Below are positions 4,017 through 57,642 of a stretch of DNA of 64,000 nucleotides, one piece after another. The stretch is taken from the NCBI GenBank assembly GCA_963828305.1, contig CAWHEJ010000012.1, positions 117,129 to 181,128 on the forward strand, written 5' to 3'. The notes under the pieces were generated by a model. It was not told the origin of the DNA and did not search any database. It saw only the letters and a program-made list of their open reading frames with translations. A program made the translations under genes and the position numbers. Numbering within the stretch: the stretch's first letter is position 1; the number at the start of each line of letters is the position of its first letter. Source of the DNA: an uncultured delta proteobacterium. Its GTDB lineage: Bacteria > Desulfobacterota > Syntrophia > Syntrophales > UBA2192.

Positions 4017-5696
<1,680 letters not shown>

Positions 5697-5823
5697 GAAG
5701 TACCCGCCCCCTCACACCGCCAAACCGCATAAAAGCGTTCCGGCCCCCGGGGGAGCTCACCCTTCCCCGGGGGCTTTTCTCTCAAAAACAGAAAGACAAC
5801 CGGGAGGAGCAGCGGGACGTGCC

Positions 5824-7530
5824 ATGAAACCCCCATCGAAGCCCACATCACCGGACAACAGGGTTGAGATACCCGCCTCGCGCGGAAAGGAGCTCCTGCG
5901 TGAGTTCGACAGCCTCGGCGGCGGGGAGATCCTGGAGCGCATCCTCAACGAGAAGAATCCCCGCAAGGTGGTCGAGGAATTTCCCGCCGGGGATTTTTTC
6001 TGGCTCATCAAGAAGATCGGAAGCGACGACTCTCTGGCGCTGCTGGAGCTTGCCACCCCGGATCAGTGGCAATATATCCTCGACATGGAGATCTGGGACC
6101 GCGACGATATCAACACCGGCGAGACCCTGTCCTGGCTGAGGCGGCGCTTCGACACCGACAGCCGCAAAACGGTTGCCTGGCTGCTGGGAGAGGGAAGCGC
6201 CCTGACCTATTATATCCTGCAAAAGAGCATCGAGGTGATGGTCCGGGAGGAGGACGACAACGAGAAGGAGATCCCCGAGGGGTTCTTCACCCACGAGGGG
6301 GTCATCTATTTGAGGGCCGTTGATACGGAGTTCGAGCCATTTCTGAGGGAGCTGACGGGCGCCATCGCCGCGGCCAGTATGCCTGCCTTTCATGCCCTGG
6401 TGTCCAGTCTTGCCGGGGTGATCCCCTCGGAGCTGCAAGACGGGATGTCCCGGATGAGAAACGTGCGCCTGGCCGAGTACGGGTTTCTCCCCTTTGACGA
6501 GGCCATCTCCATCTATTCACCCCTTTCGCTCGAACAGATGAACCTCGCAGGAAAGCCTGCCGCAATCGTCGACATCACGGCCGATGAAGAGGACCGGGCC
6601 CTGGTCCCCTTCCTGCCGCTCCACGAGGGGCCGCAGGGAAGCTTCCTGCAGGAGGCGCTGAGAGCCGTGAATGACCCCCTCCTTCTGGACCGGATGCGCC
6701 TGGAGTTCGCGGGGCTTGCAAACCAGATCGCTTCGGTGGAAGGGCTCGCCCGCGTGGAGCTGGCCGGCATGGTACGTACGACCCGTAAGGCCGCCGGTTA
6801 TCTCAATATCGCACTGGAAGAAATGACGGGAAGGGACCCCGGCCGCGCAGGCACTCTCCTGGAGAGCAACACCCTGACATCGCTCTTCCGCGCCGGATTC
6901 GGTCTCACTCTCCGCGTAAAACGAGTGGCCGATACCTGGCTCAGAATGGCCTGGTTCCGCAGGAGCGGGTTCAAGGACGGTTTCTGGGGCGATGAACGGG
7001 GCTCGCTGTTGTCGGGCCTCCTTCTGAAGAAGCCCCTGCTGTACACCGGATTGCAGGAAGGGGAGCTCTACCGGGATTTCGCCGGTGCCGAGGACCTCAC
7101 CAGGGCAAGCAGGGCCCTCATGGGACTGATCGCCATGGACGGGCTGATGGATGCCCTGACAAAGGAAATCCCGATCGGTCCTGAGAGTTCCGGACGGGAG
7201 GACCTGACCTGCTTCCATCTGCTGTTGACGTTCTGGGCCCGCAGGCGGCTCGGGCTCGAGCCCGGGTTTGCGGCGATCGAGCCTGGAGAGGCCCGGGCCT
7301 TCTTTGCGATCCTTCGCGAGGGTGAAACGGCACCCCCTTACCAGATGGCCCGCTTCCGGGAAGTTTTCATCGAGGACATGCTCGGGATTGCATCGGTCCT
7401 GCCCGACGATCTGCAGGCCGCCCTGCGCGAGGAGCTATCCAACGTCTGGGAGGAGTTCCGGGACGAATACGAAGAGGTCCCCCCCGCCGACACGGACATG
7501 AAACACAATCCGTTCCTGATGATCAGCTAG
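5824..7530 (+). CDS. hypothetical protein (569 aa), no recognisable domain
   Basis: Long ORF with coding-like composition. Internal ATG at 5824 (MKPPSKP...) chosen because the upstream part of the ORF overlaps the groEL 3' end and its stop region. Confidence 0.55.
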   Translation: MKPPSKPTSPDNRVEIPASRGKELLREFDSLGGGEILERILNEKNPRKVVEEFPAGDFFWLIKKIGSDDSLALLELATPDQWQYILDMEIWDRDDINTGETLSWLRRRFDTDSRKTVAWLLGEGSALTYYILQKSIEVMVREEDDNEKEIPEGFFTHEGVIYLRAVDTEFEPFLRELTGAIAAASMPAFHALVSSLAGVIPSELQDGMSRMRNVRLAEYGFLPFDEAISIYSPLSLEQMNLAGKPAAIVDITADEEDRALVPFLPLHEGPQGSFLQEALRAVNDPLLLDRMRLEFAGLANQIASVEGLARVELAGMVRTTRKAAGYLNIALEEMTGRDPGRAGTLLESNTLTSLFRAGFGLTLRVKRVADTWLRMAWFRRSGFKDGFWGDERGSLLSGLLLKKPLLYTGLQEGELYRDFAGAEDLTRASRALMGLIAMDGLMDALTKEIPIGPESSGREDLTCFHLLLTFWARRRLGLEPGFAAIEPGEARAFFAILREGETAPPYQMARFREVFIEDMLGIASVLPDDLQAALREELSNVWEEFRDEYEEVPPADTDMKHNPFLMIS

Positions 7531-17791: not shown

Positions 17792-17957
17792 GACACAGCC
17801 TCCGGGGGATCGTCGCCGCCCTCGCTGAGAAGGCTTTTCGGGAAAGCGCAAAGGCAACGGCCATCCATGTCATCCGGCACGGGAGATATGCGTTATCTTC
17901 ATCGTGACTCAGGAGGATTTGCCGGAGGATCATTTCAATAGTAAAGGGGTATTGACC

Positions 17958-18449
17958 ATGAAAAAAGGATTGCTTGTTCTCGCCATCGTTCTCACCGTAA
18001 CGCTCGCGCTTTCGGGCATGCTCTTCGCGCAGGCCAAAAAGGGCCCTGCCACCGACGGCAAGTCCGTCTGGGACTTCATCCAGAAGGGGAAATACCAGAG
18101 CTGGAAGACGTGGCCCGGCACCGAGTCCCAGTATGCAGGGCCCGAGCCCCACGGGGCGTTTCTGACGACCTACGTCAACCAGGTTGCCTTCGACTCCATC
18201 AAGGCCAAGAAGGGCAAGTTTGCCGACGGGGCCATGATCGTGCAGGAGAACTTCGGCAAGGACAAGAAGCTCAAGCACATCGACGTGATGTACAAGGTGA
18301 AGGGCTACAACCCCAAGGGCGGCGACTGGTTCTGGGCGCAGTACAAGGCCAGCGGCAAGGTGGACCAGGAAGGCAAGATCGACGATTGCATCAAGTGCCA
18401 CGAGGCCCAGAAGACCAACGACTACGTCTACACGAGCAAGATGAAGTAG
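17958..18449 (+). CDS. periplasmic monoheme c-type cytochrome (P460-like)
   Basis: Signal peptide MKKGLLVLAIVLTVTLALSGMLFA and a single CIKCH haem-binding motif near the C-terminus. Size 163 aa. Confidence 0.7.
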   Translation: MKKGLLVLAIVLTVTLALSGMLFAQAKKGPATDGKSVWDFIQKGKYQSWKTWPGTESQYAGPEPHGAFLTTYVNQVAFDSIKAKKGKFADGAMIVQENFGKDKKLKHIDVMYKVKGYNPKGGDWFWAQYKASGKVDQEGKIDDCIKCHEAQKTNDYVYTSKMK

Positions 18450-19306: not shown

Positions 19307-20632
19307 ATGAGTTTCAAGTTGTTCGAGTTACATCCACTGATTCAAGCGGGCGTTGAGGCCCTCGGCTACGAGGAGCCCACGCCGATCCAATCCGAATGCA
19401 TCCCACTCATACTCCAGGGCCGGGATGTCATGGGAATGGCCCACACCGGTACGGGAAAAACGGCCGCCTTTGGTCTCCCGATCCTGCAGAGACTAATGAC
19501 AGGGCCGCGCCGTCACGTTCGTGTGCTCATCATCGCCCCCACCCGGGAGCTGGCCGAGCAGATCCACGAGGCCATACGCGAACTGGGCCGAAAAACGAAA
19601 GTGAAGAGCGTTACCGTCTACGGGGGCGTGAAACAGACCTCCCAGGTCAGAAAGCTCCAGGAGGGCGCCGAGATCGTCGTGGCATGCCCGGGGCGCCTGA
19701 TCGACCTCATGGACCAGGGGGTCATTGACCTCACCCATCTGGAGGTCCTCGTCCTGGACGAGGCGGACCGCATGTTCGACATGGGGTTCATGCCCGATGT
19801 CCGGAAAATCCTGAAAAGAATCCCCGCCCAGCGCCAGACCCTCCTGTTCTCGGCCACCATTCCCGACGAAATCAGGCATCTGGCAAAGGAAGTGCTGCGG
19901 GACCCCGTCACCGTGCAGGTCGGCGAATCGACCCCGGTCTCCACGGTCTCCCACGCCCTGTACCCCGTGGAACAGCATCTCAAGACGGGCCTGCTGACGA
20001 AGATCCTCGACCGTACGGACACGGATTCGGTTCTCGTCTTCACCCGGACCAAAGCCCGGGCAACACGCGTGGCAACGCACCTGAAAAAAGCGGGATTCCC
20101 CGTCGCCTCCATGCAGGGAGATCTGTCTCAGGGCCAGCGCCAGGATGCGCTCAACGGCTTCCGCACCGGCAAGTACAGGATCCTCGTGGCGACCGACATC
20201 GCCGCCCGCGGTCTCGACATCTCCCGGATCTCGCACGTGATCAATTACGACATGCCGGACACGGTTGACGCCTACACGCATCGTATCGGCCGAACGGGCC
20301 GCGCCGAGAGAACCGGCGACGCCTTCACGTTTGTCACCCGTGAGGACAGGGCCTTCGTGTGGGCCATCGAGAATGTCCTGGGCGAAGAGATCGAGAGGCG
20401 GACGCTGGAAGACTTCGACTATACCGCGGCACCCAAGGAGAGCCCAAGAGGAGGCTTCCAGAGATACGGGGGCCGGGAACGTGAAGCGAGTCCGAAGGCT
20501 GGGCCGATGCGCCGCGAGCTTTCATCCTTTGCAGCTGCGCAGTCGGGCTCCGACTCGACGGAGGGAGCGCGGAAAGTGACGCTTTTCTCCACGCCCCGCT
20601 CGAGATCACGCAGGGCACGCAGTGTCCGCTGA
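19307..20632 (+). CDS. DEAD-box ATP-dependent RNA helicase (RhlE/DeaD-like) with basic C-terminal tail
   Basis: Q-motif FELHPLIQAGV...PTPIQ, motif I AHTGTGKT, DEAD (LVLDEADRM), SAT, HRIGRTGR. Confidence 0.9.
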   Translation: MSFKLFELHPLIQAGVEALGYEEPTPIQSECIPLILQGRDVMGMAHTGTGKTAAFGLPILQRLMTGPRRHVRVLIIAPTRELAEQIHEAIRELGRKTKVKSVTVYGGVKQTSQVRKLQEGAEIVVACPGRLIDLMDQGVIDLTHLEVLVLDEADRMFDMGFMPDVRKILKRIPAQRQTLLFSATIPDEIRHLAKEVLRDPVTVQVGESTPVSTVSHALYPVEQHLKTGLLTKILDRTDTDSVLVFTRTKARATRVATHLKKAGFPVASMQGDLSQGQRQDALNGFRTGKYRILVATDIAARGLDISRISHVINYDMPDTVDAYTHRIGRTGRAERTGDAFTFVTREDRAFVWAIENVLGEEIERRTLEDFDYTAAPKESPRGGFQRYGGREREASPKAGPMRRELSSFAAAQSGSDSTEGARKVTLFSTPRSRSRRARSVR

Positions 20633-20771
20633 GCAGGAAGCCTTAAAGAAGGGGGCATGATTAGCATTGCAGTCAGGCCCCGTATGTGATAACGACTCGT
20701 TCAGTATTCGGAAAAGTCGGAAGAGTTTCAGGCCAACATCACTAGAACCATTAATTTTTCAGGAGAGGTCG

Positions 20772-21083
20772 ATGAAGATTTACGTCGGGAACATGCCTTA
20801 CGGTGTCACGGAAGAGGATCTGAAGCAGTCTTTTTCAGCATTTGGCGAGGTCACGTCCGTGTCGATCATCAAGGACAAGATGAGCGGGCAGTCGAAGGGG
20901 TTCGGCTTTGTCGAGATGGCATCGGCTGAGCAGGGCCAGGCCGCCATCAGCGGGATGAATGGCAAGGAACTCAAGGGACGGAAGCTCAATGTCAACGAGG
21001 CGCGCCCCCGCCAGGACGACGGTCGTGGTGGTGGTGGTGGCATGAGACGCCCCGGTGGCGGCGGTGGCAGACCCCGTTACTAG
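20772..21083 (+). CDS. RRM-type RNA-binding protein with Gly/Arg-rich tail
   Basis: RNP-2 IYVGNM and RNP-1 KGFGFVEM. RBS AGGAGAGG upstream. Confidence 0.85.
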   Translation: MKIYVGNMPYGVTEEDLKQSFSAFGEVTSVSIIKDKMSGQSKGFGFVEMASAEQGQAAISGMNGKELKGRKLNVNEARPRQDDGRGGGGGMRRPGGGGGRPRY

Positions 21084-39166: not shown

Positions 39167-39265
39167 CGATCAATGAACAATCCTGTCATTCCCGCGGAGG
39201 CGGGAATCCAGAAAAGATTGGATGCCGGATCAGGTCCGGCATGACATATTCACACAACAAATCGA

Positions 39266-39297
39266 AGCCGCCCCTCGTTTCGAGCGGGCGGCTTTTC
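39266..39297 (+). terminator. rho-independent terminator candidate after the PEPCK-like gene
   Basis: agccgccc-ctcgtttcgag-cgggcggc followed by ttttcatt. Confidence 0.5.
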
Positions 39298-39312
39298 ATT
39301 ACACGATCCGGT

Positions 39313-39356
39313 GATTGCCTCTAACGCAGAATAACACGACTGCCCCCAACTGCACC
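39313..39356. repeat. 44-bp direct repeat, copy A (partner at 40669..40710)
   Basis: gattgcctctaacgcagaataacacgactgcccccaactgcacc is about 80% identical to copy B. It shares cagaataacac with 36664. Confidence 0.65.
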
Positions 39357-39497
39357 CCAGGAGCGCCCAGGCCGCGCCTTTCACCTGTTTATCCTCAAAC
39401 TTCCATAATGTTGAAGTGTGACGATTACGTAAAGTAAGGTTCGATTTCTCATGAACTTTCGGCGATCGTATTTTCCGCTCGCTCTCACGTGGCACTC

Positions 39498-40250
39498 TCA
39501 TATCAGCCCTAATTTCCGTCCGAGGGAGAACCCGAGTTTTTCCAGCCGTCTCATGTACCAGTAGGTCCCCGCATTGTCGAGTGAGTCGAGTGATGCAATC
39601 AGATCGGTAAGGTAATCCCCCATGTGAGAGAAGTAGTCAAGCTCCCTGCGCTTCGTGAAATACGGACCGGAAAAAAGCCGCATCAAATCACGCAGAGCGA
39701 TGATCCCTCCCCTTTTTTCCTTGTTGAATTCTCCCCACTTGCGAAGATGTTCTTCCGACCGGAAGAAGTGCATCGTGCTTCACGAGTAGGGTACGTTGAG
39801 CATCCACCTTCCGATGGGTACGGAGACATGGCCAATCAACCCTTTCGGCTCCTCCGTCTCGATCTTGCCGTCCTTCACCTCCACTCTTATGGGCTCGCCA
39901 CAATCAAGACACACTGAATCGATACGCACCGTCTTCCCCGGAAAAAGCCAGCAGACCGCCAGCGATTCAAACGCTCACTGGCCGAACCATTTCTGAATGC
40001 CATCGATAGTCAAACGGTAATGTGTTGGGAGATTGTTGAAGGGTGCGAAAGACACGATATTGTCGGTTTTCGGGTAAAGCCACCCCGGAAAGCCGAGGGT
40101 CGAAAAGAGCTTGCGGAGTGTATTCCTGCCTTTCTCGGGCGACACACCCAGCGCGGCTGCTATCTCTGTGTAGTGCGGCGCTTGTCCGGTTGCAATCATC
40201 TTTTCGATGATAATGTGAAACGTCTGATCCAGTTCACTTGGCGTTGACAT
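39498..40250 (-). CDS. organomercurial-lyase (MerB)-like protein with two in-frame TGA codons at the positions of the MerB catalytic cysteines; candidate selenoprotein
   Basis: Three same-frame segments (40250..39978, 39974..39783, 39779..39498) are separated only by TGA at 39975..39977 and 39780..39782. Each nucleotide was hand-verified, and there are no other stops. Context ...KWFGQ-U-AFESLAV... matches MerB YAWC96ALD99TL, and ...PYS-U-STMHFFRS... matches MerB FC159CHVHFFAS. Strong SD AGGAGGT lies 6 nt upstream of ATG 40250. Hairpin UUCUUCC-GGUC-GGAAGAA starts 13 nt after the second UGA. Confidence 0.7.
39750..39767 (-). promoter_or_regulatory. SECIS-like stem-loop downstream of the second in-frame UGA
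   Basis: The perfect palindrome ttcttccgaccggaagaa forms a 7-bp stem with apical loop GGUC, 12 nt after UGA 39780..39782. Spacing is typical of bacterial SECIS. Confidence 0.45.
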
Positions 40251-40668
40251 GTCTTTACCTCCTTTTTCACAGGCAGGTGAATGCATGAATTTGTTTTATG
40301 CAAAAATAGATATTCTGAGTCTCGTAAAACGTGATTCCCCACAGAGGTATGGTAACCGCCATGGAAGCCGTAATATCGGCACCAGCCGATAACTCCTTTT
40401 CACGGCGGACTCCAGAAGGTAAAGGGGAAGGTTGATGGGTTTATTGAGCTAATAAGAGAAACGACGATTGATGAATGCTCTTATGAGAAGGTAAAGTCAA
40501 AAGAAAAATAGTCTCGGTTCTGAGCCCAAATTGAAGATACAGGGTTGTAAAAATTCGATTATTGGGAAAACCAACAGTTCCGTCAGGAAGGATTACTGTC
40601 TGAAAGGGTTATCTTTTGCAGAATTGCCGGACGCTTTGTTACAGGAAGAAGTAGATGCCCGCCCCCAT

Positions 40669-40710
40669 TATTGCCTATCACGCATAATAACGTGACTCTC
40701 CCCAACTGCC
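40669..40710. repeat. 44-bp direct repeat, copy B
   Basis: tattgcctatcacgcataataacgtgactctccccaactgcc. Confidence 0.65.
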
Positions 40711-40814
40711 AATCTGATGGTGACAAACCGGGTCATCTGCCATAAAATGGATACGCTGACTGTTTCGTATGGAGTCTCGAAAGATGGTATAATGAGTTGG
40801 TCGGAAGGAGCTGC

Positions 40815-41243
40815 ATGATGCTCGAGGAAACAACCCTGTCCAGAAAAGAGATGCGGGGCAAACGCAAGCCGTCGATGCTGATTCTTGGCAGCTTCGAGAA
40901 GCTGAAGCAGGATCTGATCCCCGCGCTTTTCCGCATCGCCGGCGATCATGGGATCGGGCATATCGACATCAAACCGTCGACGGAGGCTGTCGATGTGAAG
41001 CAGCTCAAGGGATACACCCTGGTCTTTGTGGCTTTCGAGATTTACAGAGACAATGAATCCTTCTTCCGCTTGCTGCCGGAATCCATCCAGGAACGGATCA
41101 CCATCCTGTCAAGGCCCGCAGACTTCCCTTCCGTGGCCCCGGATATCAAATGCGCATGCTACTGCTCTGAGTTGAAGGCTCTCCTGCCCAGGGAAGAGGC
41201 GCAACTCTTCGACCACCACACCGAGTCCCCTAAGCCCCGATAG
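40815..41243 (+). CDS. hypothetical protein (142 aa)
   Basis: ATGATG preceded by GGAAGGAG. No recognisable domain. The segment is AT-richer than its surroundings. Confidence 0.45.
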   Translation: MMLEETTLSRKEMRGKRKPSMLILGSFEKLKQDLIPALFRIAGDHGIGHIDIKPSTEAVDVKQLKGYTLVFVAFEIYRDNESFFRLLPESIQERITILSRPADFPSVAPDIKCACYCSELKALLPREEAQLFDHHTESPKPR

Positions 41244-41319
41244 CGTAAAGTTCGAGCAGGACCCCGATTAATTCTCACGCAAATCCAAATCTGCAAATGT
41301 GAAGGGATGCCCCTGGTTT

Positions 41320-41673
41320 CTATACTTCGACCAGGACCTTGAATCCGCCGTATACCATCCGCTTGATGTCGAAGGGCATCTCCTTCATATCGCCCATTTT
41401 TTCCATTTCTTTCATCACCTTTGCATTGACGCGATCGCGATGTGCCCGCGACTTGAATACGATATACGAGAAAACCACGGTTTCGCCGGGCTTCAACTTC
41501 ATCAGGCGCGAAAATGGCATCCCCCACTTGGTCTTTAAGTCCTCACCGACGCATTCCTTGTAATCAAGGGCACCGTGTTTCATCCATATCTTTGCTCCCA
41601 TCCTGGCCATGCGTGCATAGGTTTTCAGGTTTTTCTTCGGGATAGGTAAAACGTATCCATCAACGTATCTCAT
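41320..41673 (-). CDS. DUF1428 family protein
   Basis: MRYVDGYVLPIPKKNLKTYARMARMGAKIWMKHGALDYKECVGEDL is typical of DUF1428 (YbaA-like). RBS AAGGAGGT lies 5 nt upstream of 41673. Confidence 0.7.
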   Translation of the reverse strand: MRYVDGYVLPIPKKNLKTYARMARMGAKIWMKHGALDYKECVGEDLKTKWGMPFSRLMKLKPGETVVFSYIVFKSRAHRDRVNAKVMKEMEKMGDMKEMPFDIKRMVYGGFKVLVEV

Positions 41674-42123
41674 CGTAACCTCCTTTTGCGTCAATGATGA
41701 AGTTGTCACGGCTATAGGCTTAATCGCTGTTCTACGAACGTTAGAAATGAGGTAGTTGGATTGACGGGACGACAGACGGGAACATCTACAAACTCATTTG
41801 TAAATACGTCCATACTGAAGGGCAGTCAAGAGCAATCGTAATGATGACATGCATTTGAAATGTGAGAGGGCGGTATTTCTTTACACCATCGGGTCTTATT
41901 CGAGAGTCATTGTCCGTGATTTATTTGCGGGAGTTATTATAGACATCTGAGAGTAAACATATGTCAATGTTCAAGGCTGATGCCGCTTTTACAATGCACG
42001 CAGCTCATGCAAAGCCAAATCTGCAAATGTGAGGGGCGTCCCCGATTTTCCACTCTTGAGGGTTAGGAGGTTATGTTCAGCGTCTAGGTTCGCCAGCATT
42101 CTATCCAGATAAATGCTTCATCC

Positions 42124-42576
42124 TTAATCGGGTACGTTACGCGGGAGCGGTTGCCCCTTCTTAACAATTTCCACCGCTTGTGCGAACCTCTTATGATAAG
42201 TACCTTCTGTCAGGGTCGTTGCAATGTTCACCGTGACTCTTCGTTTTGTGACAACGGTGACTTTTGTGTTCTTCTTATCAACGGGCTCAATCCACGCCCC
42301 CATAACGGCTCCCCATGAAACCAGATTCATTCCACTGCTGGTCAGCATGTAACCCTGATCCCTGTGCTCTTCAATTGCATCGGAGCCCTCCCACCGGAAC
42401 ACGGTTTTTGAGATTTCCCATGCTTGATCGACATTAACAGGGTAAACCTTTGTTGTGCCTTCCGACCCGTCCTCCTTGACCCGCACCACATCGTTCATCG
42501 TGGCACATCCACTAAGCAGCGCAACAAATGACAAGAAAATGATCCATGCCAAGACCCTGCATCCCTTTTCCTTCAT
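42124..42576 (-). CDS. hypothetical lipoprotein
   Basis: Lipobox LLSGC after an N-terminal hydrophobic segment. 150 aa. Confidence 0.6.
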   Translation of the reverse strand: MKEKGCRVLAWIIFLSFVALLSGCATMNDVVRVKEDGSEGTTKVYPVNVDQAWEISKTVFRWEGSDAIEEHRDQGYMLTSSGMNLVSWGAVMGAWIEPVDKKNTKVTVVTKRRVTVNIATTLTEGTYHKRFAQAVEIVKKGQPLPRNVPD

Positions 42577-42781
42577 GTGCCGACCCCCTTATTGGTATTT
42601 GCCATAAAAAACCGGACTTACCAAAGATTTAGCTTCAGCAGTCCGGTTGATACACGCATTTCAACTACCATACTCCGCATCCCGCGTTCACAGGTGTGGC
42701 TATGTAAAAATGTTCTTTGCTCATTAATGAATTGACTCATAAAACTCGATGAAGCCGGATCAGGCACCCGATTGTACTGCA

Positions 42782-43960
42782 TCAAAGATATGAGAGCCAC
42801 CAATCGTGACGCCGAGCCTTGACTCCCGCGAACCATGCACAGGCGGGGTACATGGTAACAACGGTGAGCAACCACACGATATAGACGCCGCCGAGTGAAA
42901 GCCCGAAGTTTGGTGGAGTCTCAAGAAAGACAACGGCCATCTCGCGCAGAGTGAATCCCTGCCAAAGCCCGATGGAAACGGCGATCGCGTGAATGAGGTA
43001 AAGATGGAGGATATAGTAGAAAAATGACACCCGCCCGATAGTCACCAGGATTGTGACGGCTTTCCCCGTTAGCCGCTCGAACCATCCGAGCAGCATGAGT
43101 GCGGGCCCCAGCGTCATAAGCAGGAACTGCAGGGAAACGGGATACTTCGTGACATTGAGAAAGCTGATAATCGTTGCAGCCGTGTTCTGCTGTGGCGCCC
43201 AAACCGCCGGGTCGCCGTAGAGATTTGTCAGGCGAAGCAGGAGGAACGAGAGCGTCAGGACTGCACCGGTGAGCAGGAGACGCCCGGGGCGCTCAGGGTT
43301 GGGGCCCACAAAATAGGGGCCTATCGCGTAACCGAGTGCCATGACGCCGATCCACGGAATCAGCGGGTAGATAATGAATGCCACAGGCGTGCCGCCAACC
43401 TCGAGAGTCCCGGGGATGTGCAGAATAATCCACAGGGGCGAAGCCTCGGAGAGCACCGGCTGAATGCCGTCCAGTCCATTATGCGCAGCGATCATCACCA
43501 CGCCGAAACCCGCGATGGCAGCCCGGGGCAACCAGACGAGAGCGGAGAGCGCGATCATCGACCACCCGATTGCCCAGATCACCTGCAGCAAGAGCTTTGA
43601 GTGCAGGTTGAAGGACCAGGCGAATCCGATGACGGTCAATTCGAGGAAAACAAGCCACACACCGCGGCTTGCCAAAAAGCGCGTGACCTCGCCCGTGGAC
43701 CGTTGCCGGGTCGCGCCGTACATGAACGCGCTCACACCCGCGAGCAGCACGAAGGTCGGCGCGCAAAAATTCGTGATCCAGCGGGTGAAAAACAACGCAC
43801 CTGCCGAACCGGCGAAATCCACCGCTGCCGAATAATTGGCACTCTGCGGGTGTGTCACCATGTCGCGCACGTGGTCGAGCGCCATGATGACCAGGACGAC
43901 GCCGCGCAACATGTCGATCGAGGTGAGACGATTTCTGCGAGCCGGCGCTTCTACGCCCAT
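42782..43960 (-). CDS. DUF1624/acyltransferase-family integral membrane protein (heparan-alpha-glucosaminide N-acetyltransferase-like)
   Basis: RLTSIDMLRGVVLVIMALDHVRD N-terminal motif and about 10 TM segments. Confidence 0.6.
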   Translation of the reverse strand: MGVEAPARRNRLTSIDMLRGVVLVIMALDHVRDMVTHPQSANYSAAVDFAGSAGALFFTRWITNFCAPTFVLLAGVSAFMYGATRQRSTGEVTRFLASRGVWLVFLELTVIGFAWSFNLHSKLLLQVIWAIGWSMIALSALVWLPRAAIAGFGVVMIAAHNGLDGIQPVLSEASPLWIILHIPGTLEVGGTPVAFIIYPLIPWIGVMALGYAIGPYFVGPNPERPGRLLLTGAVLTLSFLLLRLTNLYGDPAVWAPQQNTAATIISFLNVTKYPVSLQFLLMTLGPALMLLGWFERLTGKAVTILVTIGRVSFFYYILHLYLIHAIAVSIGLWQGFTLREMAVVFLETPPNFGLSLGGVYIVWLLTVVTMYPACAWFAGVKARRHDWWLSYL

Positions 43961-54663: not shown

Positions 54664-54852
54664 AAGCGGCGATGGGTGTGCTTGTGTTCCGCATGCGGAT
54701 TGTGTATAAATAAAAGTGTGTCGATAAACCTGCCTTTCCTTTTGAAGATACACTTGGGGAATGTCGACAAGCGTCCCTTTTCCGTCCCGGATCGAAACGA
54801 ACCTACCGCTCTCTAATGCCCGTTGCGCCCGTCTTGCTCAAGGAGGGGCCCC

Positions 54853-57642
54853 ATGAGCAGAATCAAGGAATTAAACAAGCTCGGCCAGTCCGTCTGGCTC
54901 GATTTCATCCGCCGCTCGCTGATCACCTCCGGCGAGCTGGACGCCCTTATCGCCCGGGGCGTCTCCGGCATCACCTCCAACCCCACCATCTTCGAAAAGG
55001 CCATCGCGGGAAGCTCGGATTACGACGAGGCCCTCCGGGAACTCGTGGCCGAGGGAAAATCGAATGACGAGATCTACCTGGCGCTCGTTCTCGACGACAT
55101 CCGGCGGGCCGCTGATTTCTTCCGGCCGGTCTGGGACGCCACGGGGGGCACCGACGGCTATGTGAGCCTCGAGGCAAACCCGAAGCTCGCCTCTGACACC
55201 GAGGGGACCATCGCCGAGGCGAAAATGCTCTTCAAGGCCCTCGACCGGCCCAACGTGATGATCAAGGTCCCCGCCACGGCGCAGGGGGTTCCGGCCATCG
55301 AGGCCCTCATCGCCACGGGCGTCAACGTCAACGTGACGCTCATCTTCTCGCTGGCTCACTACGAGGCCGTGGTCCGGGCCTACATCGCCGGCCTCGAGAA
55401 GCTGGCCGCCAGGGGGGGCAATCTTCGCAAGGTCGCCTCCGTGGCCTCCTTCTTCGTGAGCCGCATCGACACGGCGGTGGACAAAAAACTCCAGGCCCTC
55501 GGGAATCAGGGCCTCCAGGGAAAGGCGGCGATCGCCAGCGCGAAGCTGGCCTACGACCGCTTCCGTGCGATATGCTCCTGGAAGCGCTGGGAAAAGCTCG
55601 CAGGCCAAGGGGCCCGCGTGCAGCGGGTCCTCTGGGGGAGCACGGGCACCAAGAACCCGCGCTACCCGGATACGCTCTACGTCGACGAGTTGATCGGACC
55701 CGACACGGTGAACACCCTGCCGCCGGCCACCCTCGAGGCCTTTCTTGACCACGGAAAGGCTGCCCCGACGCTGCGCAGGGGCGTGCGGGAGGCCAGGCAG
55801 GTTTTTAACGGAATCGAAAAGCTGGGCATCCACCTGGACGGAATCACCGAGGAGTTGCAGCGCGAGGGCGTGCTTGCCTTCGAGACTTCCTTCGATGCGC
55901 TGATGACAAGTATCCGCTCCAAACGGGACGAGATCCGGGCGGGATGGAAGCCCGAGTCCACCGAGGCCGGCACCTTCCGCGGGCAGATTGACGAAGCCCT
56001 CATCGGACTTCGCAAGGACCGCATCCTGGACCGCATCTGGGCGAAGGACCACACCGTCTGGAAACCCGATCCGAAGGAGATCGCCAATCGCCTCGACTGG
56101 CTCACGAGTGCTTCCGACATGATGGAGCGCCTCGACGAGATCGAGGCCTTCGCGAAGGGCGTACGGTCTGACGGTTTCACCCAGGTGCTGCTCCTGGGGA
56201 TGGGCGGCTCGAGCCTCGCCCCGGATGTCTTCGCGAAGACCTTCGGCAGCGAACCCGGGTGGCCAACGCTTGCCGTCCTGGACAGCACCGACCCGGGCGC
56301 CGTGTTTCGCCGCGCGGGAGAGCTCGACCCGGCAAGGACCCTCTTCATCGTCTCTTCGAAATCGGGGACGACCGTCGAGATCCTCTCGTTTTTCAAGTTC
56401 TTCTATAACTGGACCTGCGAGCGGCTCGGAAAGGAAATGGCGGGCGGACGCTTCGCGGCCATCACTGACCCCGGATCGAAACTCGAGGGGTTGGCACAAA
56501 AGTATGGTTTCCGCCAGGTCTTCCTGAACGACCCGGACATCGGCGGCCGCTTCTCGGCCCTGTCCTTCTTCGGCCTGGTGCCTGCGGCGCTCACCGGTTT
56601 CGATATCAGGAAACTTCTCGAGCGGGCCATGACGATGGCCGCCAACTGCGATGCCGCCAACTGCCCCGTGACGGGCGACAACCATGGAGCAAGGCTCGGC
56701 GCTTACCTGGGAAGGCTCGCACAACTCGGCCGCGACAAGCTCACCCTGATCACCTCGCCCTCGATCCAGCACTTCGGCGACTGGGTGGAGCAGCTCATCG
56801 CCGAGAGCACCGGGAAGGAGGGCAAGGGCATCCTGCCCGTACTCCGCGAGGCCCCGGGCAAGCCCGACGTCTACGGGCCGGACCGGCTCTTCGTGGGGTT
56901 GGAGGCGGCGGGGGAGCCGCTTCGCGCAACGTTCCTCCGGTCCCTGGAGGATGCGGGCCACCCCGTGGAGATATTGCGCCTCCATGACCCTTATGACCTG
57001 GGCGGGCAGTTCTTCCTCTGGATGATGGCCACCGCCGTGGCGGGCCGGTTCCTGGGCATCAACCCCTTCGACCAGCCCGACGTAGAGGCCGCCAAGGCGG
57101 GCGCCCGCGAGGCCGTGGAAGCCTACAGGACAAGCGGCAGGCTTCCCGAGGAGAAGCCGGCCTTGAGCTACGGCGGCGTCGACGTGTACGGCAGCGTGAA
57201 GGGGAAGGACACGGTGAGCGCCCTGGAGGGATTCCTGGAAGATGCGGCGCCGGGGAGCTACATCGCCGTCATGGCTTACGTAAACGCTTCGGACGAGACG
57301 GACATCCTGCTGCAGGTCTTCCGCACGAGGCTGCGCGACCGCTACCGGGTCCCCGTGACCGTGGGTTACGGCCCCCGCTTTCTCCACTCGACAGGACAGC
57401 TCCACAAGGGCGACGGCGGGCGGGGGCTCTTCATCCAGATCACGGCGGACGGCGAAGAGGACGTCCCGATCCCCGACGCGCCGGGGGCGGCGGCGTCTTC
57501 GATCACCTTCGGGACCCTCGAGGCGGCCCAGGCCATGGGCGACCGGCAGGCCCTTCTGGGGAGAGGGCGCCGGGTCATCCGGCTCCACCTGGGCCCCGAT
57601 ATCGTCGGAAGGCTGGCTCTTTTGACAGAAGGGATTCTCTGA
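54853..57642 (+). CDS. bifunctional transaldolase / glucose-6-phosphate isomerase fusion
   Basis: N-terminal transaldolase (QSVWLDFIRRSL...TSNPTIF, KVPAT). The C-terminal PGI (LGMGGSSLAPDV, sugar-isomerase signature) gives 929 aa. RBS AGGAGG. Confidence 0.9.
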   Translation: MSRIKELNKLGQSVWLDFIRRSLITSGELDALIARGVSGITSNPTIFEKAIAGSSDYDEALRELVAEGKSNDEIYLALVLDDIRRAADFFRPVWDATGGTDGYVSLEANPKLASDTEGTIAEAKMLFKALDRPNVMIKVPATAQGVPAIEALIATGVNVNVTLIFSLAHYEAVVRAYIAGLEKLAARGGNLRKVASVASFFVSRIDTAVDKKLQALGNQGLQGKAAIASAKLAYDRFRAICSWKRWEKLAGQGARVQRVLWGSTGTKNPRYPDTLYVDELIGPDTVNTLPPATLEAFLDHGKAAPTLRRGVREARQVFNGIEKLGIHLDGITEELQREGVLAFETSFDALMTSIRSKRDEIRAGWKPESTEAGTFRGQIDEALIGLRKDRILDRIWAKDHTVWKPDPKEIANRLDWLTSASDMMERLDEIEAFAKGVRSDGFTQVLLLGMGGSSLAPDVFAKTFGSEPGWPTLAVLDSTDPGAVFRRAGELDPARTLFIVSSKSGTTVEILSFFKFFYNWTCERLGKEMAGGRFAAITDPGSKLEGLAQKYGFRQVFLNDPDIGGRFSALSFFGLVPAALTGFDIRKLLERAMTMAANCDAANCPVTGDNHGARLGAYLGRLAQLGRDKLTLITSPSIQHFGDWVEQLIAESTGKEGKGILPVLREAPGKPDVYGPDRLFVGLEAAGEPLRATFLRSLEDAGHPVEILRLHDPYDLGGQFFLWMMATAVAGRFLGINPFDQPDVEAAKAGAREAVEAYRTSGRLPEEKPALSYGGVDVYGSVKGKDTVSALEGFLEDAAPGSYIAVMAYVNASDETDILLQVFRTRLRDRYRVPVTVGYGPRFLHSTGQLHKGDGGRGLFIQITADGEEDVPIPDAPGAAASSITFGTLEAAQAMGDRQALLGRGRRVIRLHLGPDIVGRLALLTEGIL

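Follow-up and report, generated by a model that had tools for sequence, protein, structure and literature searches.

A MerB-like gene with two in-frame UGA codons at the catalytic cysteine positions points to an unannotated family of double-selenocysteine proteins

The stretch of DNA analysed here (64,000 nucleotides (nt), hereafter the window) is chromosomal and originates from an uncultured delta proteobacterium of the order Syntrophales (contig CAWHEJ010000012.1). On its minus strand, it carries a gene related to that of the organomercurial lyase MerB, which almost certainly encodes a genuine selenoprotein with two selenocysteine (Sec, U) residues. The coding sequence (39498..40250) comprises 250 codons, including two UGA codons presumably read as Sec, followed by a terminal TGA. 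UGA codon 92 (39975..39977) and UGA codon 157 (39780..39782) are found at the positions of Cys96 and Cys159 of MerB, respectively. The locus is very likely to be one intact, monocistronic gene for a selenoprotein of 250 amino acids (aa) belonging to the MerB superfamily (PF03243).

A program-made list of open reading frames (ORFs) divides this locus into two minus-strand ORFs, 39975..40286 and 39498..39773, which share one frame and are separated by 201 nt, as had been pointed out in the original prediction, made from the sequence alone. Translation from the ATG at 40250-40248 to the TGA at 39500-39498 confirmed the remainder of that description: readthrough gives a 250-aa product, and the frame contains exactly two internal stops, both TGA (39977-39975 and 39782-39780), with no other stop and no frameshift. 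The Shine-Dalgarno sequence AGGAGGT, predicted 6 nt before the ATG, is present on the minus strand at 40257..40263, and homologues begin at positions that align with the N-terminus MSTPSELDQTFH. The terminal TGA (39498..39500) is not followed by any hairpin resembling a selenocysteine insertion sequence (SECIS). As it ends the MerB-like gene, UGA also terminates translation within this same gene.

With regard to the similarity to MerB, the profile comparison suggested in the original prediction, with U replaced by C, gave 81.3 bits against a cut-off of 27 for the Pfam MerB family, residues 73-192 aligning with positions 3-120 of the 126 positions of the profile. A phmmer search against solved structures matched the MerB and MerB2 chains, together with one further chance-level match (E = 0.77). 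In the phmmer alignment, U92 is placed on Cys96, U157 on Cys159, and E95, encoded by the GAA codon at 39966..39968 of the minus strand, on the proton donor Asp99, in agreement with the earlier claim that both TGAs sit on the catalytic cysteine columns of MerB and that a glutamate replaces Asp99. The sequence identity between the window protein and canonical MerB is approximately 20%. The columns that define MerB proper, Cys96, Asp99, and Cys159, thus appear to hold Sec92, Glu95, and Sec157 in the aligned window protein, i.e., the catalytic positions would be kept with residues that are chemically related, not identical.

The two UGA codons are shared by a large number of relatives. A species scan, comprising one genome per species, revealed 396 genomes encoding a relative, the best 80 of which were examined at both columns, and relatives were also present in at least 569 metagenome stretches. 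TGA was found at both columns in 80/80 of these best genomes. Among the 164 homologous loci analysed, which come from genomes and metagenomes, 145 are TGA/TGA, 18 are Cys/TGA, one is Cys/Cys, and none is TGA/Cys. Site 1 is thus a TGA in 145/164 loci and a Cys codon (TGC or TGT) in 19/164, and site 2 is a TGA in 163/164 and a TGC in 1/164. A Cys at site 2 is present in the Cys/Cys locus (L086, corresponding to the database protein P0025) and in the database protein P0039. The original prediction had judged a chance occurrence of two TGAs on the Cys columns to be very unlikely and had raised the question of whether homologues carry Cys or TGA there; these counts support the former and answer the latter. 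Even a metagenome scan seeded with the forms bearing Cys at site 1 retrieved mainly TGA/TGA genes. The residue at the Glu95 column is a glutamate in 164/164 loci and an aspartate in some database homologues.

Full-length homologues are 50-81% identical to the window protein. The carriers are mostly anaerobic bacteria, and Desulfobacterota account for the majority of the loci examined. The best 80 genomes belong mostly to Syntrophales, Desulfobacterales, and other Desulfobacterota, including the Olavius algarvensis Delta 3 symbiont. The other carriers among them are one genome each of Thermoanaerobaculaceae (Acidobacteriota), Nitrospinaceae (Nitrospinota), and Spirochaetales (Spirochaetota), two Chloroflexota (Dehalococcoidia and Chloroflexia), one Poribacteria, and one Abyssobacteria.

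A decaying merB-like pseudogene, in which two chance nonsense mutations would have hit Cys codons, has to be considered, as a single-base change converts TGC or TGT into TGA, the ORF list gives only fragments, public gene calls treat the relatives as fragments, and the low-GC island around the gene was possibly acquired horizontally. This hypothesis is effectively refuted by the comparative sequence data, and we attribute to it hardly any probability at all. The same two TGAs are present in 145 loci at 54-81% protein identity, the frame exhibits no other stops or frameshifts, and each TGA is followed by a conserved hairpin with compensatory changes. In addition, strong purifying selection, accompanied by free synonymous change, is observed downstream of both TGAs, in line with the initial proposal that the gene is not decayed. 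In the set of 82 sequences used for the codon and synonymous analyses, whose protein identity to the window gene is 54-80%, residues C114, D116, C117, G128, P135, P145, and W149, located between or after the UGAs, are invariant, whereas their synonymous sites vary freely, which indicates that translation continues past both UGAs. Two metagenome loci (L127 and L131, on contigs Ga0208819_1000036 and Ga0116132_1000081) show a one-base insertion in the loop of the hairpin that follows the second UGA, CCGGGUCGG; this insertion shifts the frame and leaves an ORF of only 47 codons after that UGA. These two loci are either real pseudogenes or affected by a sequencing error.

Each UGA is followed by a hairpin within the coding sequence. 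Hairpin 1 (GCUGGC-GGUCU-GCUGGC; 39947..39963, minus strand) comprises a stem of 6 base pairs (bp) and a 5-nt loop, begins after an 11-nt spacer and has its loop 17 nt from UGA-92. It is followed by UUUUU, and the two together match a simple intrinsic-terminator pattern within the coding region. Hairpin 2 (UUCUUCC-GGUC-GGAAGAA; 39750..39767, minus strand) comprises a 7-bp stem and a 4-nt loop, begins after a 12-nt spacer and has its loop 19 nt from UGA-157. Hairpin 2 was already described in the original prediction as starting 13 nt after the second UGA, and its first base is indeed the 13th nucleotide (39767-39750), while hairpin 1 had been missed. Bacterial SECIS elements are expected to show a loop of 3-9 nt, a stem of 4-16 bp, a G at the first two loop positions, a distance of 16-37 nt between the UGA and the loop, and a minimum free energy (MFE) of -7.5 kcal/mol or lower (PMC13188914, Fig. 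2). Both hairpins fall within all these limits, with spacings of 17 and 19 nt and MFEs of -7.9 kcal/mol (hairpin 1, in a 28-nt context) and -9.8 kcal/mol (hairpin 2, in context). As isolated hairpins of 17-18 nt, they reach -6.5 and -7.4 kcal/mol, respectively.

The SECIS of Escherichia coli fdhF (NC_000913.3) resembles these elements by its location in the ORF, its 11-nt spacer, its 17-nt upper stem-loop, and its GGUC apical loop, and it shares the core GGUCUGC with hairpin 1. In contrast, the stem sequences differ, the stems of the window hairpins have no bulged U, and two elements are present in one mRNA. The fdhF mini-hairpin, at -4.2 kcal/mol, is less stable than either isolated window hairpin.

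The conservation of the hairpins speaks for their function as RNA elements. RNAalifold, applied to the homologues, independently returned exactly hairpins 1 and 2. In hairpin 1, pairing is kept in 99.4% of the cells of the alignment and compensation is observed at one of the six pairs, the outer G-C pair being replaced by C-G in 10 distinct sequences. In hairpin 2, pairing is kept in 97.7% of the cells, with compensatory changes in four of the seven stem pairs, and one switch from C-G to U-A comes at the cost of a Glu-to-Lys replacement. In controls with slid partners, pairing falls to 12-65%. Codon choice is nearly fixed within the hairpins: among the 82 sequences, Ser is encoded by TCG (80/81), Leu by CTG (75/82), Val by GTC (74/81), and Cys by TGC (67/67), and likewise Phe by TTC, Arg by CGG, Ser by TCG, and Glu by GAA (82/82 each), whereas equally conserved residues outside the hairpins use all their codons. 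Codons 96-100 of hairpin 1 show a synonymous entropy near zero, and the synonymous sites of codons 163-166 of hairpin 2 are invariant in 82/82 sequences. The hairpins are made up of precisely the nine codons that have the lowest synonymous entropy in the gene, and the mean normalised synonymous entropy is 0.088 within the hairpins and 0.869 outside (permutation p <= 1e-5).

The loci with Cys codons act as a natural control, as the presence of the hairpin follows that of the UGA codon. An intact hairpin 1 is found in 142/145 TGA loci, but in only 1/19 Cys-codon loci. Of the TGA loci at site 2, 158/163 retain hairpin 2, which is destroyed in the sole Cys/Cys locus; the latter reads CTC TTT CGA TCG CGG. 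In a rough neighbour-joining tree with a midpoint root, the Cys forms fall inside U/U clades, which suggests, from these sequences, repeated switches between Sec and Cys at site 1. In one Cys/Sec locus nested in a U/U clade (L085, 6001-6720), hairpin 1 (GCUGGC-AGUUU-GCUGGC) is intact after a TGC codon; judged by its sequence, it looks like a recent switch from Sec to Cys.

Single-sequence folding yielded z-scores of only +0.5 and -1.3, so that one sequence alone cannot establish the hairpins, but the comparative data do. An Rfam scan of positions 39300-40500 at E <= 10 returned no SECIS family, as expected for elements of only 17-18 nt. Two other helices were considered and rejected. An alternative 6-bp helix including UGA-92 (CAGUGA/UCGCUG), which competes with hairpin 1, is disrupted in homologues whose UGA is preceded by CAA. 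With regard to a possible lower stem of hairpin 2 (GAUG/CAUC), its His codon varies freely (49 CAT vs 33 CAC).

Based on these observations, recoding of both UGA-92 and UGA-157 to Sec, each by its own in-frame SECIS hairpin, is the most plausible interpretation. With the UGA in the A site of the ribosome, the complex of SelB, GTP, and Sec-tRNA(Sec) would recognise the apical loop GGUC(U), which follows at a distance of 17 nt for site 1 and 19 nt for site 2, and Sec would be inserted in place of termination, twice per polypeptide. SelB-dependent insertion at both sites, an inference by analogy, is strongly supported.

A reassigned genetic code is excluded for the window because TGA terminates Pfam-confirmed genes, including those of glucokinase, G6PD, 6PGDH, and RpiA, as well as the MerB-like gene itself. 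This observation also bears on the hypothesis that UGA is read as Trp, Gly, or Cys, either with code table 4 or 25 or by near-cognate readthrough independent of any SECIS, to give a selenium-free protein. Many database homologues are indeed deposited with Trp at both positions. Nevertheless, the deposited Trp corresponds to TGA in the DNA, the carriers belong to at least six phyla with ordinary codes, the homologues without TGA have Cys, not Trp, at these columns, and the TGAs are accompanied by SelB-type hairpins that are lost with the Cys codon. We therefore regard a standard amino acid at these positions as very improbable.

The public annotation itself accounts for these Trp residues and probably explains why the family has been overlooked. 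The relatives retrieved by the protein search are of three kinds: full-length proteins (approximately 232-236 aa) encoded on short contigs and showing Trp in both columns; shorter proteins (approximately 155 aa) that have a Cys in the first column and end just before the second; and two full-length Cys/Cys proteins. Dozens of database proteins of the family (among P0001-P0051) exhibit Trp at both Sec positions, and the DNA of two such entries has TGA at both (loci L001, 524-1225, and L002, 402-1100). Gene-calling artefacts, resulting from the use of a TGA=Trp code on short contigs, are the simplest explanation for the Trp residues. In a representative library, an inspection by eye of the best 150 matches (P0121-P0270) showed that approximately 40 terminate at profile position 89-90 and approximately 14 at 153-155, while 3 begin at 159. 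A 155-aa fragment from Candidatus Sulfotelmatobacter (P0089) is named 'organomercurial lyase' by NCBI. Such a systematic artefact, whereby genes are cut at the UGA or given a Trp there, can hide selenoproteins.

Sec insertion is generally inefficient and truncated products will exist, so the UGAs could also serve mainly for programmed termination or attenuation. The products would then be N-terminal fragments of 91 aa and/or 156 aa and the hairpins a regulatory pause or terminator, for which hairpin 1 and its U-tract have a fitting, terminator-like pattern. However, conservation at the protein level extends downstream of each UGA and includes the second catalytic position and the FFRSEEH..W motif, the homologues with Cys codons encode an uninterrupted full-length protein, and the hairpins exhibit SelB-type GGUC loops at SECIS spacing. 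We consider attenuation to be even less probable than decoding of the UGAs as a standard amino acid.

With regard to the position of the family within the superfamily, the window protein scores below the cut-offs of the NCBIfam MerB equivalogs NF009710 (52.3 vs 193) and NF033555 (46.4 vs 200), and its relatives obtain 23-43 bits on these models. With the hidden Markov model of SaoL (NF040728), the window protein obtains 47.8 bits against a cut-off of 140, and its relatives 31-47 bits. We therefore place the family, on these scores, as a third branch of PF03243 beside MerB and SaoL; it is distinct, widespread, and so far unannotated. For P0025, the naturally occurring Cys/Cys orthologue, which is 53% identical to the window protein, the AlphaFold 2 (AF2) model showed a predicted local distance difference test score (pLDDT) of 93.8 and a predicted template modelling score (pTM) of 0.88. 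All 11 Foldseek matches of this model in the PDB at E <= 0.001 are MerB or MerB2, with a best E of 8e-10 and TM scores of 0.57-0.68. The family is thus predicted to adopt the MerB fold, the model being that of the Cys/Cys orthologue and not of the window protein.

Several features are specific to the family: the Glu in place of Asp, an invariant C-L-D-C motif, and a helical C-terminal extension of approximately 65 residues. The motif (Cys114-Leu-Asp-Cys117; 39900..39911, minus strand) is located between the two Sec codons, and C114, D116, and C117 are kept in 82/82 sequences. Cys114 aligns with Cys117 of MerB, whereas Cys117 of the window protein has no MerB counterpart. The extension (39501..39698, minus strand) lies beyond the MerB-aligned region, as the Pfam and PDB alignments stop near residue 190. 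It is kept in full-length homologues and is helical at high confidence in the P0025 model, except for the last residues, which are of low confidence.

Compared to canonical MerB (plasmid R831b; PDB 3F0O, 3F0P, and 1S6L) and MerB2 (5C17), the family shares the fold, as predicted from the P0025 model, and the positions and spacing of the catalytic triad. In contrast, canonical MerB exhibits Cys/Asp/Cys where Sec/Glu/Sec is found here, the window gene has no merA/R/T/P context, and the carriers are anaerobic Desulfobacterota in place of the hosts of mer plasmids. The closest precedent is SaoL (NCBIfam NF040728), a MerB-like organometallic lyase selenoprotein whose single Sec occupies the position of Cys159 (Haft & Gwadz 2022, bioRxiv 10.1101/2022.07.06.499078). 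Both belong to the PF03243 superfamily, occur in anaerobes outside any mer operon, have Sec at the Cys159 position and are truncated at the UGA in databases. SaoL differs by its single Sec, located in a C-U dipeptide, by the Cys and Asp at the positions of Cys96 and Asp99, by its length of approximately 213 aa, and by its location within the nine-gene SAO locus, whereas the window gene stands alone. In the family described here, both catalytic positions are Sec (Q-U-[AG]-F-E and [SA]-U-[STA]), with Glu as the acid; the window protein further differs from SaoL by the CxDC motif, the C-terminal extension, and a site-2 motif that is S-U-S and not C-U. Two Sec per polypeptide and a presumed binding of soft metals are also features of the UxxU proteins NF041115 and of the FmdB family (PMC13188914). 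Their Sec residues are 3 residues apart in one motif, whereas those of the window protein are 65 apart, replace a catalytic pair, and each have their own SECIS.

SaoL is the sole MerB-like entry in the prokaryotic selenoprotein catalogues of 2022 and 2026 (PMC13188914 for the latter). A double-Sec MerB family was not found in the May 2026 catalogue (PMC13188914), in NCBIfam 20.0, or in Rfam, nor in full-text searches of the literature available without subscription. The original prediction had not been certain that such a protein was described: a Sec-containing MerB-like protein, SaoL, was in fact known, while the double-Sec family was not found in the literature. What is new is therefore the second Sec and the separate family, the principle of Sec in MerB-like proteins being already known. 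The selenoprotein catalogue would gain a family in which two Sec replace both catalytic Cys, with a SECIS for each.

Judged by homology alone, the most probable chemistry of the family would be a protonolysis of carbon-metal(loid) bonds of the MerB type, since Sec92, Glu95, and Sec157 would occupy the places of MerB Cys96, Asp99, and Cys159 in the MerB fold. In this scheme, the metal of the compound R-M would be captured by the pair of selenolates, and the departing carbanion would receive its proton from Glu95, so that R-H is formed and the metal stays bound to both Se ligands. Candidate substrates would be methylmercury or other organomercury compounds, or another soft organometal(loid). Judging from the sequence, we lean slightly towards a carbon-metal lyase of some kind; an organomercurial lyase specifically is a tentative assignment and less likely than not. 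It is somewhat more doubtful that the family as a whole represents bis-selenolate lyases that are widespread among anaerobes and have been overlooked, cleaving carbon-metal bonds either in methylmercury (for instance, as demethylases of Syntrophales and Desulfobacterales that act independently of mer) or in another organometal(loid).

Hg-Se bonds are extremely stable. The double-Sec protein may therefore be no carbon-metal lyase at all, and Sec92 and Sec157, perhaps together with Cys114 and Cys117, could bind or sequester soft metals (Hg, Cd, As, Cu), as a chaperone, a sensor, or a single-turnover scavenger, or form a diselenide redox centre of low potential. The vicinity of the gene encodes neither MerA nor another acceptor, the additional CxDC motif is invariant, and the N-terminal region resembles winged-helix domains (ranks 16-30 of the fold search), all of which would fit such a role. 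A choice between binding and catalysis has likewise been discussed for SaoL and other SAO selenoproteins (Haft & Gwadz, bioRxiv 10.1101/2022.07.06.499078). We nevertheless hold a binding or redox function to be rather unlikely: the full catalytic geometry of MerB appears to be kept, including a carboxylate proton donor that is present in all loci, no non-lyase function is known for the MerB fold, and the expense of two Sec residues suggests selection for catalysis.

Several points weigh against the interpretation of the gene as a double-Sec carbon-metal lyase. Hg(II) bound to two selenolates would be very hard to release without a partner, which argues against a simple catalytic cycle of the MerB type with mercury. 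The Glu-for-Asp swap, the extra CxDC motif, and the C-terminal extension are unexplained. The bare stem of hairpin 1, which includes two G-U pairs, reaches only -6.5 kcal/mol. With regard to the Sec machinery, neither selA, selB, selD, nor tRNA-Sec was found within the 64-kilobase (kb) window, which contains no tRNA genes and no SelA, SelB, or SelD domains among its approximately 50 ORFs, and a scan of the window for TGA-interrupted frames gave no convincing second selenoprotein. The Sec-decoding trait of the source genome is thus assumed. In its favour, the transketolase of the window is 87% identical to that of a metagenome-assembled genome (MAG) of Syntrophaceae and points to a Syntrophaceae-like host, from what we take to be a Sec-using lineage. 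Finally, there is no conserved neighbourhood and there are no adjacent mer or hgc genes, so that the genomic context gives no support for a mercury function.

The immediate neighbours of the MerB-like gene encode PEPCK, a DUF1428 protein, an acyltransferase, and RecQ. None of merA, merR, merT/P, hgc, or the SAO genes was found in the window, and no neighbour is conserved across the 80 genomes (82 loci). A comparison with the SAO locus (saoTECXLBPAD) showed no adjacent genes for an ABC transporter, an efflux pump, or a thioredoxin-like protein. The sole ABC system of the window, located at 13.2-15.9 kb, i.e., 24 kb from the MerB-like gene, contains PBP_like_2 and TOBE domains, and we read it as being of the molybdate/tungstate type. 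The only repeated context found near genes of the family is a block located 0.5-4 kb downstream in 11-14 Syntrophaceae loci (L046, L063, and approximately 10 others), which encodes a CCG-domain Fe-S protein, an FAD-linked oxidase, and a 195-aa protein and is probably a matter of lineage synteny. The 195-aa protein resembles, by eye, the C-GCAxxG-C-C family, of which Sec forms are known.

The MerB-like gene is located in a low-GC island of 3.6 kb (39200-42800) with 45-53% GC, the flanks showing 60-65%. The island also contains two ORFs without a Pfam match (40797-41243, plus strand, and 42124-42576, minus strand) and the DUF1428 gene (41320-41709, minus strand). A horizontal acquisition of the island is possible and would be consistent with the patchy distribution of the family over several phyla.

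If the bis-selenolate lyase function is correct, no enzyme family before this one would have had Sec in place of both members of a catalytic Cys pair, each inserted via its own SECIS. A recent survey of merB was based on Prodigal proteins and on a manual screen for Cys96, Asp99, and Cys159 (PMC12484752, Methods). As such surveys combine Prodigal calls with this screen, they would discard the family, and estimates of the anaerobic demethylation potential would be incomplete if the family cleaves Hg-C bonds. The natural Cys/Cys, Cys/Sec, and Sec/Sec forms of one family constitute a ready series on the contribution of Sec to the cleavage of carbon-metal bonds.

Other genes of the window were observed at a distance from the MerB-like gene. 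A 939-aa ORF (54823-57642, plus strand) fuses transaldolase (TAL_FSA) and phosphoglucose isomerase (PGI) domains and lies within a pentose-phosphate cluster (50.1-61.9 kb) that comprises genes for glucokinase, transketolase, RpiA, 6PGDH, G6PD, and 6PGL. At 4071-7530 (plus strand), a gene whose product has a domain of the chaperonin family (Cpn60_TCP1) precedes a DUF6178 gene, the type of chaperonin being, in our reading, unusual for a bacterium. A cytochrome P460 domain protein is encoded at 17904-18449 (plus strand), and at 19307-21083 (plus strand) the gene for a DEAD-box helicase precedes that for a small RNA-binding protein (RRM_1).

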